A DNA stretch of 14,744 nucleotides from positions 1-14,744 of IMG/VR virus record IMGVR_UViG_2585427758_000010; one strand, 5' to 3'. The notes beneath the pieces are model-generated. The model saw only the letters and a program-made list of their open reading frames with translations, did not search any database and had not been told where the DNA came from. The DNA is from a virus. Lineage: Duplodnaviria; Heunggongvirae; Uroviricota; Caudoviricetes. Shown here in pieces: positions 2,670 to 13,642 of the stretch (positions are counted from its first letter, which is position 1; each line of letters begins with the position of its first letter). Both the position numbers and the translations under genes were made by a program.

Positions 2670-3728
2670 TTATGCTTTCCACTTCAGAACACCCGAATTT
2701 CTCGCGTGCATTAAAAAACGAATCAGCAACAACAGCTGGCTGCCGTGTTTTTCTTCAAAATCTTTTACCCCGGCGTGTAGTTCGCTATGGCATTTACGGC
2801 ACAGCGGAATAACAAACAAATCATCAGCCTTTGTTCCCATCCCTCCCAGTCCATGACCAATGATGTGATGCGGATCATCTGCCTGATTGCCACACGTCAT
2901 GCATTTCTGCGTTTTTACCCAGCGCGTGTATACAGGCATCTCTTCCCGTTGTGATTTCTGGCGCTGGAGATACTGAGCCGGTGACTCGGGATCAACGGCA
3001 ATGCTGACCACCGTCTTTTCCTGTGGTGGGTTCTGTTGCTGGTGGGCGTGAGGCAGCGGCGCAAGATTTTTTGTGCGCTGTTTCAGTATGCTGGTGGCGG
3101 TCTGCTCTCCCGGTATGATGTCGCTTTCACTGTACACAGAGCGAATTTTTTCCGCACGCAACCCCAGCGAACGACGTAATACCGCTTCCGGTAGCGCGTC
3201 CGCCACCTGATTGCGGACCGCCCACCAGGATAATTCAGCCAGAGATAATTCACGCTCCTGCGTACCGCTTATTGCGTGACCGATGACGTCAATCATCCAT
3301 GCTGACAGGTTTTGATGAGCAAGTTGCCCGAGTGATTCGGATGTCTGGTCACGCAGCTGGTTGTCGCAGTGCCAGCACAACACCATTGCGCCGGTACCAT
3401 AACGGTGAATGACGGTTTCGCTGTGATGATAATCGCCGTGTGGCCACTGGCAGGATTTAATATGGCGCAACAGCCAGTCAGACAATGCACCAGCACCACC
3501 AGCAGCACGAATCACCCGTGCGTTACTGAAAAACGGCAGCAATGTTTTGTCTTCCACCAGCGGCTGGCGAGCGGCAGGAACGACCCCGGACGGCAGATTA
3601 CGCATGCTTTTTGGTTCCGGCTCCACCAGTATTCTGCCGTTATGGAATGCTGACATTGATTCACGGCCTGGCTTAACGATAACCAGACCGAGTTCCGGTA
3701 CCAGAACAGATCGAAGTAATACCCGCAC
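2670..3728 (-). CDS. DUF968 / YdfU-like prophage protein with a C-terminal HNH-type zinc-finger motif
   Basis: 352-aa ORF. C-terminal CMTCGN...DPHHIIGHGLGG...LCRKCHSELH is an HNH-like CxxC...HH...CxxC-H arrangement. Position immediately upstream of rusA and Q matches the lambdoid nin region. Confidence 0.8.
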   Translation of the reverse strand: MRVLLRSVLVPELGLVIVKPGRESMSAFHNGRILVEPEPKSMRNLPSGVVPAARQPLVEDKTLLPFFSNARVIRAAGGAGALSDWLLRHIKSCQWPHGDYHHSETVIHRYGTGAMVLCWHCDNQLRDQTSESLGQLAHQNLSAWMIDVIGHAISGTQERELSLAELSWWAVRNQVADALPEAVLRRSLGLRAEKIRSVYSESDIIPGEQTATSILKQRTKNLAPLPHAHQQQNPPQEKTVVSIAVDPESPAQYLQRQKSQREEMPVYTRWVKTQKCMTCGNQADDPHHIIGHGLGGMGTKADDLFVIPLCRKCHSELHAGVKDFEEKHGSQLLLLIRFLMHARNSGVLKWKA

Positions 3729-3729
3729 A

Positions 3730-4008
3730 TTACCTCCAGATCCGTTGCTGGAATGTGCGGGACGGACGCGCTGGCCGTTCTGAGTAAGGGAGCCTGACGG
3801 AGATTATCCAGTGACGGTAGTCGAGGCTAAGGGCTTTTTTAACCTCGCATCCGCGCCCGCGGTAACACTGAATGAGCCATTCAGCCTGTTCTTCGGTGCA
3901 GGGGTCGTGCTGATACCAGTCAGATTTGAATGCATGAGAACGCCGCCCGTGCCTGCTGGCAGGGGCGGCAGAGTTATCCGAATTGTAAAATTTGGTATCG
4001 TGCGCCAT
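3730..4008 (-). CDS. Hypothetical protein (92 aa); possibly the 3' remnant of a gene truncated by the adjacent AT-rich insertion
   Basis: ORF with phage-like GC content and a weak RBS. The frame stays open for 28 codons upstream of the ATG to a stop at 4096-4098, exactly where composition switches to AT-rich, with no alternative start. Confidence 0.45.
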   Translation of the reverse strand: MAHDTKFYNSDNSAAPASRHGRRSHAFKSDWYQHDPCTEEQAEWLIQCYRGRGCEVKKALSLDYRHWIISVRLPYSERPARPSRTFQQRIWR

Positions 4009-4275
4009 CTGTTTTCTCTGCTGGCGCAGCAGGTGCCAGTTGTTCAGGCTGACGTATGAAGTATAAATAAACTGGCTCCAGTGTAAAGCCCCACCTTAAT
4101 GGAATAAAAACCAAACAACAGATTGCTGGGATAAAAATACAACGCTTATTATTAAAAGCGGTTAGATAAATTAAATTTTAATGTTATGCAAATCTGCCAG
4201 ATTAGCATAATATTTCATTTGAAAACCGCTGAAATAACAATCTTATCGGGATTAATCATATTAAGGTGAGTAAAT

Positions 4276-4362
4276 ATGGAAAACAACAAATCTGCACATT
4301 ACGCTCCTTTTTTATCTGTAATACTTTTTGTATTTTGTTGTGTATGGGCGGTATTTTTATAA
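4276..4362 (+). CDS. Small hydrophobic peptide (28 aa), candidate membrane peptide
   Basis: AAGGTGAG Shine-Dalgarno 5 nt upstream of ATG 4276. Product MENNKSAHYAPFLSVILFVFCCVWAVFL is a polar N-terminus plus one predicted transmembrane helix. Stop TAA at 4360-4362 is followed by the hairpin at 4378-4407. Below the 60-aa threshold of the ORF track. Confidence 0.35.
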   Translation: MENNKSAHYAPFLSVILFVFCCVWAVFL

Positions 4363-4377
4363 AACACACCCACAAAT

Positions 4378-4407
4378 AAATCAAACCCGCTACAGCGGGT
4401 TTGATTT
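4378..4407. terminator. Bidirectional intrinsic terminator between convergent genes
   Basis: Perfect inverted repeat AAATCAAACCCGCT-AC-AGCGGGTTTGATTT with a GC core and T-rich flanks on both strands. It lies 16 nt after the small + ORF and 10 nt after the stop of the minus-strand protease gene. Confidence 0.6.
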
Positions 4408-4416
4408 ATATAGTTG

Positions 4417-6681
4417 TTATACGGAAACTGGCACACGAGCAGGCAATGGATAGTGAGCCCAGTTATTAGCATTTAAAGCTCTTACGCCATCAGCATAAAC
4501 TTGTGTGTTTCCATCTAATGATTTTAAAGTTACTACAATAGTTACAGGTAAAGGCTCCATTAAGGCCGGTTCATTCGCTCTCAACGTTGTTTTAGCTTGA
4601 AGAGCCCAGTTACCCGAAGTAATTCCTTTATTAAATGCCTTGCGATGAATTTTTACTGGTGACCACTTTCCACCATGCTCAATTTGAGCTCTCTCATATC
4701 CAGATTGACCGTTTTCTCCTTCCATAGGTACTTTTCCTTTTATAGTATTATTCTCAATTAAGCCAAAACTTAGCTCTACGTTCGCGCGAACATATTCACT
4801 GCCGGCATTAGGGTTCAGTGGTGGTGCATATGCAGCAGTAATTACAATCTCACCTTTAAATTTTCCATTTTGAATAAGTGCCGATGGTATGGGATAGTTT
4901 TCCTTTCTCCACCTCACCCCAGGAACCAAGAATGTTTGGAAAATCAGAGTAAACCTATCATCACTATCATATAAGGTCTCAATAACCTCATTAGGAATTC
5001 CCGCTCCCAAATAGCGTCTTTCACTTGGCGAGTAATCAGGAGAAGATAATTGAGCGGAATGAATTAATAATGCTTTAATCAATGATGGTGAAACATTAAA
5101 GTCTGAATTAGTGGCTATTCTCTGCCATGTATGCGCAGCTAAACTTGCCACAATTGGAGCAGCAAAACTAGTACCAAAATTAGAGCAAAGCCTATTATCT
5201 GGCCCTACGACCTTTAAACTGCTTGCTCCTACATTCCAAGGTCTATGAACCCCACCGCCAGCATGGATTATATCTGGCTTTGGAGTAAATACAGGCCCAG
5301 GGCCACGACGAGTATATGGTGTCGGTGTTCCAATTTCACTTAAAGCATCATTAGCTTCCATATGAGAAACTGAACCAACTGTTAGTGCTCGGACTGACTC
5401 TCCAGGAGAGGAAATTAAATCAGCACCTCCAAGCGGATCAGGATTTGGCCATGTACGTATAGGTTCATCTACATAATTACCTGCAGCAACTACAAACAAA
5501 ATACCAAATTTATCGCTGAGCCGATCTAACTCCATCGCAAAATCACTAAACATCTGCTCATTACATGGTCCGCCTCCCAAAGATAAATTCCAGACTTTTA
5601 TATCTGGTCTTTTATTTACAGCATCTGCTAGCCTCAGAATTAAATCTGATATATAAGATCCATTTTCATCTAAAGCACAAACATCATGGATTTTAGATTT
5701 TGTATCAGGAATCCATGGATGATTGTCATTTAAAAAATGAGCGCCTGATATCAATGAAGACACCATAGTCCCATGTTCATAACTCGTATCAGGAGGAATT
5801 ACGTATGTTTCCCTACTCACTACCCAAGGAGTAATTGTTGCCGCGATGGGGCTTACCCCAGTGTCAAATACAGCAACAATGGGTAATTCTTCTGATGGTA
5901 CGGGAAAGCTATTTGTTTCAATGCCAACAGAATCACTTACACTAACCGGGAATGCTGAATATTTTGGTTCTGGAATTAACGTTCTTATACCCGGGTAATC
6001 AATGAGAATGTCTAATATATATCTATCATTTGGGGATAAATCCATTATCCTTAATAAGGGAAGACCACATTTTGGTCTAATCTCATCATATTTAACTCCG
6101 TGTTGTTCTAATATAGAAATAACGTTTTCATAGTTGTTGTAAGTTGCATCTTCACCTGTGTACTCAAATAGTCGTACAAGGATGTTTGATGATTCAAACA
6201 AACCATCAGTGCCTCCTGGAACCTTCCTATTCTCATCCCAAGGTTCAATGCGCTCAATCGCGCTTAGGTTAGCCAAAATCGCTTTAATATTCCGATGTAA
6301 AATGACTGACTCTAATACGTCAAAACAGCCGGCATGAGCAGCAACCAACATTTCATCTATTTTGGCATGACCGGCATTTTGCAATCCAGCCTCTTGAGCA
6401 ATTTTGTTCGGCCTATGCGTTTTGGCTATTCCCTGGTCTCTTAATTTGAAAACCAAAGTACCCAAGCTTCCAGGGTACTCTGAAAGTTTGGATTCTAAAT
6501 AATGTTTACTGGTTGTTAAATTTCTTACTAGCCCTTGTCTATATTCGGCTGTTACATCAACCAATACCTTTGCCCCACCGCCAGCGTTTACTATTGCACC
6601 CAAGTCACTACTGGAAAAAGGGATTCTTAACATTGGGTTTGTAACTTTTGCGTTACTAAACTGTGTACCCCTTCTGCTCAT
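4417..6681 (-). CDS. Subtilisin-like serine protease (peptidase S8 family), IetS-like
   Basis: 754-aa ORF with the S8 catalytic motifs in canonical order: Asp in VAVFDTGV, His in HGTMVSSLISG, oxyanion Asn in VVAAGNY, Ser in GTSFAAP. About 270 aa precede and about 200 aa follow the catalytic domain. AGGAG lies 3 nt before the ATG. The 5' end overlaps the upstream ATPase gene by 26 bp. Confidence 0.9.
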   Translation of the reverse strand: MSRRGTQFSNAKVTNPMLRIPFSSSDLGAIVNAGGGAKVLVDVTAEYRQGLVRNLTTSKHYLESKLSEYPGSLGTLVFKLRDQGIAKTHRPNKIAQEAGLQNAGHAKIDEMLVAAHAGCFDVLESVILHRNIKAILANLSAIERIEPWDENRKVPGGTDGLFESSNILVRLFEYTGEDATYNNYENVISILEQHGVKYDEIRPKCGLPLLRIMDLSPNDRYILDILIDYPGIRTLIPEPKYSAFPVSVSDSVGIETNSFPVPSEELPIVAVFDTGVSPIAATITPWVVSRETYVIPPDTSYEHGTMVSSLISGAHFLNDNHPWIPDTKSKIHDVCALDENGSYISDLILRLADAVNKRPDIKVWNLSLGGGPCNEQMFSDFAMELDRLSDKFGILFVVAAGNYVDEPIRTWPNPDPLGGADLISSPGESVRALTVGSVSHMEANDALSEIGTPTPYTRRGPGPVFTPKPDIIHAGGGVHRPWNVGASSLKVVGPDNRLCSNFGTSFAAPIVASLAAHTWQRIATNSDFNVSPSLIKALLIHSAQLSSPDYSPSERRYLGAGIPNEVIETLYDSDDRFTLIFQTFLVPGVRWRKENYPIPSALIQNGKFKGEIVITAAYAPPLNPNAGSEYVRANVELSFGLIENNTIKGKVPMEGENGQSGYERAQIEHGGKWSPVKIHRKAFNKGITSGNWALQAKTTLRANEPALMEPLPVTIVVTLKSLDGNTQVYADGVRALNANNWAHYPLPARVPVSV

Positions 6682-7810
6682 ATGCTCCTGACTCCTTCAG
6701 AATGTTTGAAATTACTCTTGATGTAAGTTTGTACAAATTAGCAAGAACTCTGATAGAAAATAATTTTTTATCTTTAGAACGTAACCAACGAATTTCATCT
6801 TCGTAAGTGCTTAAATTTACACCTTCCATAAGCGATTGCGCAAGATACAAACGCCTATACAATTTATGGTGATTTATCACACTTGCACCTTCAATAACTG
6901 CATCCCTACGTGCATCCAAGCTCACCTGTTCAATTATTGCTCCGGATAATCCCTCCGATTTTCTTGATAAATCACTTAAATCTAGATCGCTACATATCAT
7001 ATTCTTTAAACGATTTTTCCAAATTAACTCTCTCTGATGTATGTCAGGCAGAGGCATTGGAATTCTGAAGCTAAATCGCCTCCAGATTGCAGGATCCAGA
7101 AGTTGCTCATGGTTAGTTGAGGCAATAATTACCGTATCCTCTGATGCCGCATCCATATTCTGCAATAGTGAAATGACAACTCGCTGAAGCTCACCTATAT
7201 CTCTCTCATTACCTCTTGCTCCAGCTAAAGCATCAAATTCGTCTAAAAAAAGCACTGATGGCCTCTGCATTACATAATCGAAAACCTGTCTAAGATTTTT
7301 GCTGGTTTGTCCCAATAAACTACTAATCAAAGTATCGCAACGCACTGTAAGAAGTGGAAAATCTAAGCGGGTAGCGATGTACTTAGATAACATAGTCTTA
7401 CCTGTTCCTGGCTTTCCATACACGAGCATACGACTCGGCAATGCTGCATCAGCTTTAACAAACTCATCATAACGTTGAACATTAGTGATAAACTCTTCAA
7501 CACGGGTACTGATTGCTGCAGGCAGAAAAATCTCTGAACTGTCTAATTTAGGATAACTGACATCAACAGTGTTGAGTCGACTATCAATATCTACCGGTAA
7601 TGAGCCCAGAGATATCCCACCTCCAGCCCTTTGAGCTCCTGCCAACGCCTGGGGAGCTCTAAGCAACCTTTCTCTTATCATTCTGGCTTGCTTGACCTCC
7701 CCTTTTTGTTCGAGCTTATCTGCCAGCAACCCAGCATAATTACTAGCCATCGAAGCATTTGCCTTTGTTGCACCTTCAATGATTTTTAACACTTCTGATA
7801 AATAATCCAT
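6656..7810 (-). CDS. AAA+ ATPase, IetA-like
   Basis: 384-aa ORF. Walker A GKPGTGKT, Walker B VLFLDEFD, sensor-1 and arginine-finger region ...IIASTNHEQLLDPAIWRRF, so classic-clade AAA with an N-terminal domain of about 125 aa. GGGAG RBS 6 nt before the ATG. AT-rich codon usage, unlike the flanking phage genes. Confidence 0.9.
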   Translation of the reverse strand: MDYLSEVLKIIEGATKANASMASNYAGLLADKLEQKGEVKQARMIRERLLRAPQALAGAQRAGGGISLGSLPVDIDSRLNTVDVSYPKLDSSEIFLPAAISTRVEEFITNVQRYDEFVKADAALPSRMLVYGKPGTGKTMLSKYIATRLDFPLLTVRCDTLISSLLGQTSKNLRQVFDYVMQRPSVLFLDEFDALAGARGNERDIGELQRVVISLLQNMDAASEDTVIIASTNHEQLLDPAIWRRFSFRIPMPLPDIHQRELIWKNRLKNMICSDLDLSDLSRKSEGLSGAIIEQVSLDARRDAVIEGASVINHHKLYRRLYLAQSLMEGVNLSTYEDEIRWLRSKDKKLFSIRVLANLYKLTSRVISNILKESGAYEQKGYTV

Positions 7811-8003
7811 TCAACACTCCCACAACAAAAAGCCACAGCAATCAAAAAATGAGCACACAGAATCAAAATACTCTCTAATCGTAACGCATTTTGAGATTTT
7901 TGATACGTTTTTTTGGGATTATGTAACGCCAAATGGTCATTTTGTGTCAGAAAAATAAATCTTAGTACCGAGAATATGTAGCTTCCATCCTTCATCGTTC
8001 TAT

Positions 8004-8435
8004 TCATCCCTGATCTCCAAGCCTCTCTCGAAAACCATTCTGATAAAACGCCAGCACACGCTGCATAACTTCGCTCTTCCGGCACTCGCGACAGATTATG
8101 TTCAGACGCCTGTCGTAGCGGCGTATTTCTCCGTCTGGTAATGACCAGATAAGGTCCGGATCAACCACAGATGGTTTCTTCACCTTTGCCCTGGATAGTT
8201 TTTTGCGGGCATTTTGCCAGTCCTTACGAGCCTGTTCAGACGGGAATAACCCGTAACCAGAGTTGTATACATCGCCACTGGCAACCAGCTCTCTGGCGAG
8301 AACGCTCATCAGATATCTTGTCGCACCTGTCTTGGCTTCCAGTTGCCGTAACGTCTCGCGCCCACTCCGGCGTACTAGCTCAACAACCTGCCCTTTAATT
8401 TTTTCCCGCTCTTCTTGTGTAAATACTTTTGCCAT
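8004..8435 (-). CDS. Hypothetical prophage protein (143 aa)
   Basis: ATG at 8433-8435 preceded by GGAGG at 5-nt spacing; the track ORF 8004..8450 begins at an upstream TTG. Product MAKVFTQEEREKIKGQVVELVRR... with a CRECRK motif. No family assigned. Confidence 0.7.
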   Translation of the reverse strand: MAKVFTQEEREKIKGQVVELVRRSGRETLRQLEAKTGATRYLMSVLARELVASGDVYNSGYGLFPSEQARKDWQNARKKLSRAKVKKPSVVDPDLIWSLPDGEIRRYDRRLNIICRECRKSEVMQRVLAFYQNGFRERLGDQG

Positions 8436-13584: not shown

Positions 13585-13642
13585 TTTCTGGTGACGTTTG
13601 GCGGTATCAGTTTTACTCCGTGACTGCTCTGCCGCCCTTTTT
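13585..13642 (+). ncRNA. dicF: DicF small regulatory RNA (Hfq-dependent sRNA of the dicB operon)
   Basis: TTTCTGGTGACGTTTGGCGGTATCAGTTTTACTCCGTGACTGCTCTGCCGCCCTTTTT matches my recollection of the 53-nt DicF RNA and ends in a GC-rich element plus T5. It sits about 170 nt upstream of dicB, the position it has in Qin. Identity is from memory, not a search. Confidence 0.6.

Follow-up and report, generated by a model that had tools for sequence, protein, structure and literature searches.

A short open reading frame in a prophage gap

The window, by which we mean the whole stretch of 14,744 nucleotides that was analysed, is an E. coli lambdoid prophage of the Rac/Qin type whose early-right genes lie on the minus strand. 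These encode a Q-like antiterminator, RusA, a DUF968 protein (2670-3728) and a 92-amino-acid protein (3730-4008), and further early-right genes on the same strand comprise DUF977, DUF1627, and ydaV- and ydaU-like replication genes. Two more minus-strand genes, recognized both by PADLOC and by their RefSeq names, encode the S8 peptidase IetS (IteS; 4417-6681, E 3e-300) and the ATPase IetA (IteA; 6656-7810, E 9e-143). The stop region of iteA and the start of iteS overlap by 26 nucleotides (6656-6681), an arrangement consistent with translational coupling. The 92-amino-acid protein matches PHROG 1212, a family of unknown function, over residues 27-92 only (E 1e-34); it has no family in Pfam or NCBIfam, and its N-terminal 26 residues fall outside the PHROG match. 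A full-length DicF small RNA gene on the plus strand at 13586-13637 (Rfam RF00039, 76.7 bits, E 8e-16) shows that the prophage has a Qin/dicBF-like left operon.

An AT-rich gap of 408 bp separates the 92-amino-acid gene from iteS, and within it lies a plus-strand ORF of 28 codons (4276-4362) whose translation in the window is MENNKSAHYAPFLSVILFVFCCVWAVFL. The ORF is preceded by the Shine-Dalgarno (SD) sequence AAGGTGAG (4263-4270, plus strand) and a five-nucleotide spacer, TAAAT, before the ATG; it cannot extend upstream because an in-frame TGA is present at 4267-4269. The coordinates, the strong SD and its spacing, all pointed out in an earlier sequence-only reading of this DNA, can be read directly from the sequence. 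That reading also placed the ORF in the AT-rich leader of the ATPase-protease cassette. The base composition agrees (GC 0.29-0.33 over 4100-4400, compared with 0.54 in the genes to the left), but the ORF is located in the 3′ trailer, downstream of iteS, rather than in a leader. A perfect 15-bp bidirectional terminator hairpin (4376-4409) lies between the stop codon of the ORF and the convergent stop codon of iteS.

Residues 1-9 of the encoded peptide are polar (mean Kyte-Doolittle value -1.8) and residues 10-28 are hydrophobic throughout (mean +2.6), which bears out the proposed architecture of a polar head followed by one hydrophobic helix. As a hydrophobic peptide of 28 amino acids, the product falls within the definition of type I toxins as hydrophobic or membrane peptides of <60 amino acids. 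Its likeness in format to small membrane toxins or regulators is likewise supported, and the locus shares some features with those of type I toxins. The expectation that routine annotation would miss the gene proved correct: PGAP annotates no ORF here in the identical or related genomes examined.

An ORF of this kind is not remarkable in itself. When the 408-bp gap was shuffled, 5.7% of the shuffled sequences carried an ATG-initiated ORF with an SD and a length of 28 codons or more, and the format alone is within chance expectation. What sets this ORF apart from chance is that its frame is kept in every complete homologue and that its substitution pattern is specific to that frame.

Conservation and coding selection

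Homologues were collected by scanning IMG/VR twice, with a degenerate pattern of the peptide and with a non-coding 17-mer located upstream of the ORF (window 4175-4191). The 17-mer scan takes no account of whether the ORF is intact, and the two scans together yielded ~150 true homologues with complete sequence. The 28 codons are present in all of them (~150/150), including copies retrieved solely by the non-coding 17-mer or by a 21-mer, and the apparent exceptions proved to be only SD variants, chance matches to the 17-mer or loci truncated at a contig end. These intact copies are not independent observations, since they are closely related and fall into ~4 clades with 16 ORF haplotypes. The element as a whole is represented by 70 DNA haplotypes and 13 peptide variants.

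Start codon, stop codon, length and SD-like site are kept in every clade despite nucleotide divergence of 20-25%, with AAAGTGAG, AAGGTGGT, AAGGTAGT, AAAGCGAG and AAGGTAAG serving as the SD variants of other clades. Insertions and deletions occur in the flanks and none is found in the ORF. Among the homologues, the conserved peptide positions are MENNK..H..P.LS.ILF..C..WA.FL, and a CC pair is always present.

Comparisons among four clade representatives (the window, CFT073, SW071619 and L081) give pN/pS values of 0.10-0.25 for the ORF, and the bias toward synonymous change distinguishes this frame among the plus-strand frames (one-sided Fisher p from 0.003 to <0.0001). For both shifted plus-strand frames the values are ~1.0-1.8, except that one of the four tested pairs gives 0.5. 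A similar pN/pS is seen in the antisense frame that has its wobble positions in common with the ORF, but this frame contains stop codons. Variable sites in the ORF are distributed 4/9/17 over codon positions 1/2/3 (p = 0.007). The ORF is under coding selection, and we regard it as very probably a real gene.

The peptide has no meaningful match in Pfam, NCBIfam, PHROGs or PADLOC, and no significant homology to described toxin families (Hok, Ldr, Ibs, TisB, ShoB, Zor, DinQ and others) was found in these four collections. Eight peptide variants were absent from a collection of 15 billion proteins in an exact look-up, and a full-text literature search for the peptide sequence found no paper. No Rfam family matched the region; hits to Phe and Leu leaders (E 0.06-0.07) spanning the end of the ORF and the terminator were weak and sub-threshold. 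A peptide HMM run against all short frames of the collected loci revealed no paralogue. A lipoprotein or signal peptide was also considered and rejected: the sequence lacks a lipobox [LVI][ASTVI][GAS]C, clade 1 having FVFC or FVLC with a bulky -1 residue, cleavage would leave just 6-8 residues, and the NCBIfam Lp6.6 match (E = 0.05) is far below its cut-off.

Distribution among genomes

The intergenic region, searched as a 387-bp gap sequence, has matches at ~60-100% identity in 1186 of 5426 complete E. coli genomes. Many of these matches end at the ORF stop codon or within the hairpin, and the region is annotated in none of the matching genomes examined. In CFT073 the ORF occupies positions 3049644-3049730 of NZ_CP058222.1 (plus strand). 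The Qin prophage of K-12 carries ydfU-rem-hokD and has no copy of the element.

The taxonomic spread of the element is narrow. A search of 185,579 species representatives with the degenerate peptide pattern returned one true match, in Shigella flexneri, and the other 14 matches (in Vibrio, Photobacterium and others) are stretches of the AAAAAGCGCA...GCGCCTTTT type. Patterns built to exclude the E. coli codon variants matched only the clade formed by loci L081 and L191. The AAAAAGCGCA...GCGCCTTTT-type stretches in Vibrio, Photobacterium, Oceanimonas and other genera (L128-L142) happen to translate as NNK[KG]AHxAPF; judged by eye, they look terminator-like, and they are a trap for degenerate-pattern searches with this peptide.

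Exchangeable cargo beside a conserved flank

Comparison by blastn with strains 042 and CFT073 shows that homology to the window covers 4026-4401 and resumes at 8039. This break defines 4402-8038 as a replaceable cargo slot, with the ORF in its conserved left flank. In the window the slot holds minus-strand IetS and IetA together with their upstream region, and elsewhere it holds hokD and queH (042), hokD and small hypothetical genes (CFT073) or a DUF1971 gene (clade 2). We also note that the cargo hot spot lies between the small-gene element and the DUF977 gene, as compared with L007 3871-5201 and L004 3870-5900.

The same variability is evident among ~164 copies drawn from IMG/VR and from annotated genomes, where the right-hand neighbour is HokD in 108, DUF1971 in 26 and IetS in 17. 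For example, the element adjoins hokD in CFT073, 042 and JX21CE33, and a DUF1971 gene in SW071619. On the left, at an unchanging distance, lies either the 92-amino-acid gene or one encoding DUF1367, so that two different neighbours occur on the left and at least three on the right. Conservation next to ATPase-protease pairs, which the earlier reading had proposed as a check, is thus confined to a small minority of copies.

Relatives of IetS in IMG/VR mostly belong to the same cassette, 99-100% identical and accompanied by the ORF. One full-length divergent locus, L205, encodes an IetS of 75% identity in another context and has no such ORF. There (L205 4765-5354), the end of IetS is followed by a hairpin nearly identical to that at 4376-4409 and then by an unrelated 77-amino-acid ORF on the same strand. 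Because such a hairpin follows IetS in L205 as well, it appears to belong to the IetAS cargo and not to the ORF. The view that the ORF and the protease gene share a bidirectional terminator therefore needs qualification, as the two genes do converge across the hairpin, but the hairpin itself appears to be owned by the cargo. The ORF is independent of IetAS.

A mobile module of ~220 base pairs

The element that carries the ORF is an AT-rich module of ~220 bp (4143-4364) consisting of a hairpin, a core, a 5′ region and the ORF up to its stop codon. Its most divergent copy is L081, of which L191 is a near-identical metagenomic twin. L081 comes from an enterobacterium other than E. coli, as its host genes are just 84% identical to those of E. 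coli, and it is flanked by a tail-fibre gene and, on its other side, by trkG and lysis genes. Homology of L081 and L191 to the window is limited to the equivalent of 4143-4364, from which it follows that the ~220-bp unit moves as one piece. In three contexts, including L005 and L081, homology ends exactly at the ORF stop codon. The module is autonomous, occurs in differing contexts and has a GC content unlike that of its neighbours, as is characteristic of the self-contained units known as morons, and it is predicted to have its own promoter. It has no dedicated terminator, a role served by the hairpin of the adjacent cargo.

The best-conserved portion of the module is non-coding. The AT-rich core GTTAGATAAATTAAATTTTAATGTTATGCAA (4161-4191) is nearly invariant and is kept even in L081, and the lowest variability of the element is found at 4146-4185, with 7 variable sites. 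Inside the core is a perfect 13-bp palindrome, ATTAAATTTTAAT (ATTAAA-T-TTTAAT; 4170-4182), which may be bound by a protein or may simply reflect the AT-rich composition. The core could act like an UP element for the plus-strand promoter, and it would form the body of a putative minus-strand RNA (see below). A 15-codon minus-strand ORF in the core was rejected, as its start is not conserved.

To the left of the module, 4026-4142 is the conserved minus-strand leader of nin-type genes (the 92-amino-acid protein with DUF968, or DUF1367). This leader is linked to the module in E. coli and absent from L081. A minus-strand promoter-like site, TTTACA-16-TATACT (10/12; 4087-4060), overlaps a small hairpin (4090-4074) just upstream of the 92-amino-acid or DUF1367 gene. 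The site has counterparts at the corresponding position in CFT073 (L004) and SW071619 (L005) and may act as an internal promoter of the nin and Q genes. A nut/boxA-like site was rejected, since the likeness was by eye only and the prophage is of the Qin type, for which we know of no N gene.

Candidate promoters and RNA structures

A candidate promoter for the ORF is present on the plus strand at 4184-4213, with a -35 element TTATGC (4184-4189), an 18-nucleotide spacer and a -10 element TAATAT (4208-4213). It scores below the threshold of the consensus scanner. Positions 1, 2, 5 and 6 of its -10 element are invariant across all clades (TAATAT, TAACAT, TAGCAT). Judging from these elements, the ORF transcript would start near 4221 and have a 5′ UTR of ~55 nucleotides.

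In the minimum-free-energy fold predicted for the mRNA, the SD pairs with GCUCCUUU in codons 10-12, and the AUG pairs with the CAU of codon 8. The in-ORF anti-SD corresponds to GCTCCTTT (4303-4310, plus strand). The predicted helix is kept in 11/11 clade representatives through unchanged pairs or one-sided changes (G.U to A-U), with no double compensations among the 11. The codons CCT TTT TTA are invariant in these representatives and the adjacent codons vary synonymously. On this model, occlusion of the SD by codons 10-12 of the ORF is plausible.

On the minus strand, the left edge of the module can form the hairpin CGCUU-UUAAUAAU-AAGCG (4143-4160), with 5 bp and an 8-nucleotide loop, which the scanner called terminator-like. 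A U-rich tail (4142-4129) follows it in E. coli contexts, and no U-run is present in L081. Five variants of the hairpin were observed, all of which retain 5/5 bp on the minus strand (G.U or compensated), whereas three are mismatched (A.C) on the plus strand. This strand-specific covariation rests on approximately four transitions, and the probability of such an outcome by chance is ~6%. The retention of pairing on the minus strand only points to a functional minus-strand RNA.

A candidate start for such an RNA is the promoter-like sequence TTTCCA-16-TATGAT (4282-4255, minus strand), a scanner hit from which transcription would begin near 4248. The -10-like hexamer occupies the same position in other clades (TATGAT in the window, CATAAT in CFT073 and AATAAT in L081), with a 15-nucleotide spacer in clade 2. 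Its A2 and T6 are kept, 15-16 nucleotides from TTTCCA, in all clades, and its sequence otherwise changes. Promoter-like matches in the region are weak, their number and scores being not above those in shuffled sequences. These elements would specify an antisense RNA of ~110 nucleotides, extending from ~4248, overlapping the first ~28 nucleotides of the ORF mRNA and ending at the 4143-4160 hairpin.

Possible roles of the peptide

We read the product as a new small prophage membrane peptide carried by the lambda-like prophage backbone of E. coli. It would be a 28-residue, single-pass inner-membrane peptide whose polar N-terminus, including K5, faces the cytoplasm and whose hydrophobic C-terminus lies in the membrane. 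In Rac/Qin-like lambdoid prophages its gene lies on the opposite strand from the early-right operon, a placement that, together with a promoter of its own, would suit expression in the lysogen. The module forms the conserved left flank of a hot spot for hok/sok, IetAS and other genes, and is independent of whichever cargo is present.

We consider a membrane peptide controlled both by an antisense RNA and by SD occlusion to be the most likely mechanism (probability about 0.4). The peptide would be membrane-active and the locus would operate in the manner of type I toxin-antitoxin systems with the layout of hok/sok or ldr/rdl. Translation would be limited by occlusion of the SD by codons 10-12 of the ORF itself, and also by the minus-strand RNA of ~110 nucleotides, which would start opposite the ORF start, overlap the 5′ end of the mRNA and end in the 4143-4160 hairpin. 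The hairpin, the minus-strand promoter-like site and the in-ORF anti-SD suggest antisense and translational control of the sort found at type I loci, and by this analogy the module is a candidate type I-like toxin locus with a putative antisense RNA and putative toxicity. Against such a mechanism we count the strong SD, the hairpin of only 5 bp with no U-run after it in L081, the SD helix without double compensations, the weak promoter matches, the missing charged C-terminus and the lack of toxin-family homology.

Nearly as likely is that the gene encodes an ordinary, non-toxic prophage moron peptide without a dedicated antisense RNA. Such a peptide might modulate a host membrane protein or exclude a superinfecting phage, and the hairpin and core would then serve the early-right transcript, as a tR2-like terminator before the nin and Q genes, in addition to providing the ORF promoter. 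The coding evidence speaks equally for this possibility, and the strong SD and constitutive-looking promoter fit steady expression. In bacteria, small membrane proteins often act as regulators and not as toxins, which is in keeping with a moron, and the absence of any inactivated copy fits a harmless or useful gene. Furthermore, both the E. coli and the L081 contexts have a minus-strand gene transcribed toward the module, so that read-through RNA could be the target of the hairpin. It is odd for an early-right terminator, however, that the hairpin accompanies the ORF to the unrelated position of L081 and L191 without its U-tail, and the -10-like element kept at a fixed position on the minus strand opposite the ORF start also counts against a plain moron. 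Improbable by comparison is that conservation is non-coding, reflecting a minus-strand RNA, a terminator or regulatory DNA, with the ORF as an untranslated or functionless by-product. The 5.7% frequency of an ORF with SD among shuffles, the superior conservation of the non-coding core and the similar pN/pS of the wobble-sharing antisense frame are compatible with this idea. Yet the synonymous bias is specific to frame +0 and that antisense frame is interrupted by stops, the start, stop, length and SD-like site persist at 20-25% divergence with indels only in the flanks, and homology in three contexts stops exactly at the stop codon.

Two further explanations are very improbable. The sequence-only reading had linked the peptide to the adjacent ATPase-protease cassette, and an accessory or effector role in IetAS defence would agree with the position of the ORF, which converges on the neighbouring iteS both in the window and in every near-identical cassette. 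As a general association this is refuted by the neighbours, the cassette boundaries and L205: only 17 of ~164 copies adjoin IetS, and the rest have hokD, DUF1971 or some other gene as their neighbour; the ORF, which ends at 4362, is outside the cassette (4402-8038) and has no PADLOC match; and the divergent IetS locus lacks it. The remaining candidate, a leader peptide of a transcription attenuator acting on downstream plus-strand sequence, takes some encouragement from the sub-threshold Phe/Leu leader matches (E 0.06-0.07) and from clade 2, in which the DUF1971 gene is downstream on the same strand. In most contexts, though, the plus strand downstream offers only the 3′ end of a convergent gene. 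This reading was rejected because the terminator varies with the cargo or is degenerate and because selection extends over the entire peptide instead of a regulatory codon run.

Whichever mechanism applies, the region carrying this gene has matches in 1186 of 5426 complete E. coli genomes, among them those of the model pathogens CFT073 and 042. None of the annotations and family libraries checked includes it, which makes it an example of the blind spot for small proteins. The module also defines the constant left boundary of a hot spot in these prophages that exchanges hok/sok, IetAS and other cargo, and can help to find defence cargo. Constructs of IetAS that include the native downstream flank carry an unrelated membrane-peptide gene, and their phenotypes should therefore not be taken as those of a three-gene system. 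If type I-like regulation holds, the peptide would represent a new toxin family for E. coli. The full form of that proposal is doubtful: an unrecognized type I toxin-antitoxin family, made up of a 28-amino-acid membrane toxin and a cis-antisense RNA of ~110 nucleotides, present in about one-fifth of E. coli genomes and marking the fixed edge of a hot spot for defence and toxin-antitoxin cargo in Rac/Qin-like prophages. If true, the toxin-antitoxin module would possibly stabilize the hot spot or act on phage development and superinfection.

Comparison with known systems

The module resembles the type I loci hok/sok and ldr/rdl in encoding a small hydrophobic peptide, in its carriage by lambdoid prophages and in its predicted compact layout, with an opposite-strand promoter-like site in the leader or start region. 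As in such loci, the SD of the module is predicted to be occluded within the mRNA. A prophage-borne type I locus, hokW-sokW of Sp5, has been shown to be functional (PMC8621323). There are also clear differences. The peptide has no sequence homology to Hok and is 28 amino acids long, compared with 50-52 for Hok, and the module lacks both a mok-like leader ORF and the fbi and tac elements. Its putative antisense RNA would run ~85 nucleotides past the start of the mRNA, across the ORF promoter.

Closer in size are TisB, ShoB, IbsC, ZorO and DinQ, the short chromosomal type I toxins of E. coli, which have 19-30 amino acids and one hydrophobic helix. The peptide shares this length class and the single helix, but no similarity to them was found in Pfam and NCBIfam scans. 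Many type I toxins have a charged C-terminus, which the peptide lacks, although ShoB and Ibs, like it, have a hydrophobic one. The module has neither a tandem duplication nor an SOS box. At the TisB, ShoB and ZorO loci, the small RNA is divergent, with no overlap between it and the toxin gene.

IetAS is a neighbour in the window, where it shares the 4376-4409 hairpin with the ORF, yet the ORF falls outside the cassette and in most cases is found without it. Small membrane proteins are also encoded by phage morons that the lysogen expresses, such as the superinfection exclusion gene of HK97, gp15. The module is likewise an autonomous AT-rich insert that encodes a membrane peptide and is oriented against the surrounding operon, with a predicted promoter of its own. 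Compared with such morons, it is much smaller, has no dedicated terminator and no known exclusion phenotype.

Another point of comparison is YnfS, a 29-amino-acid protein of the K-12 Qin prophage (L008 2123-2212, plus strand). The two show no significant sequence similarity and occupy different prophage positions. Nevertheless, they are alike in size, in a polar start (MNN in YnfS, MENN in the peptide), in a CC pair and a hydrophobic tail, and in lying opposite the Q-side genes of their prophages. YnfS and small prophage proteins like it went unannotated until ribosome profiling found them, and YnfS and the peptide may represent an analogous class of prophage micro-peptides.
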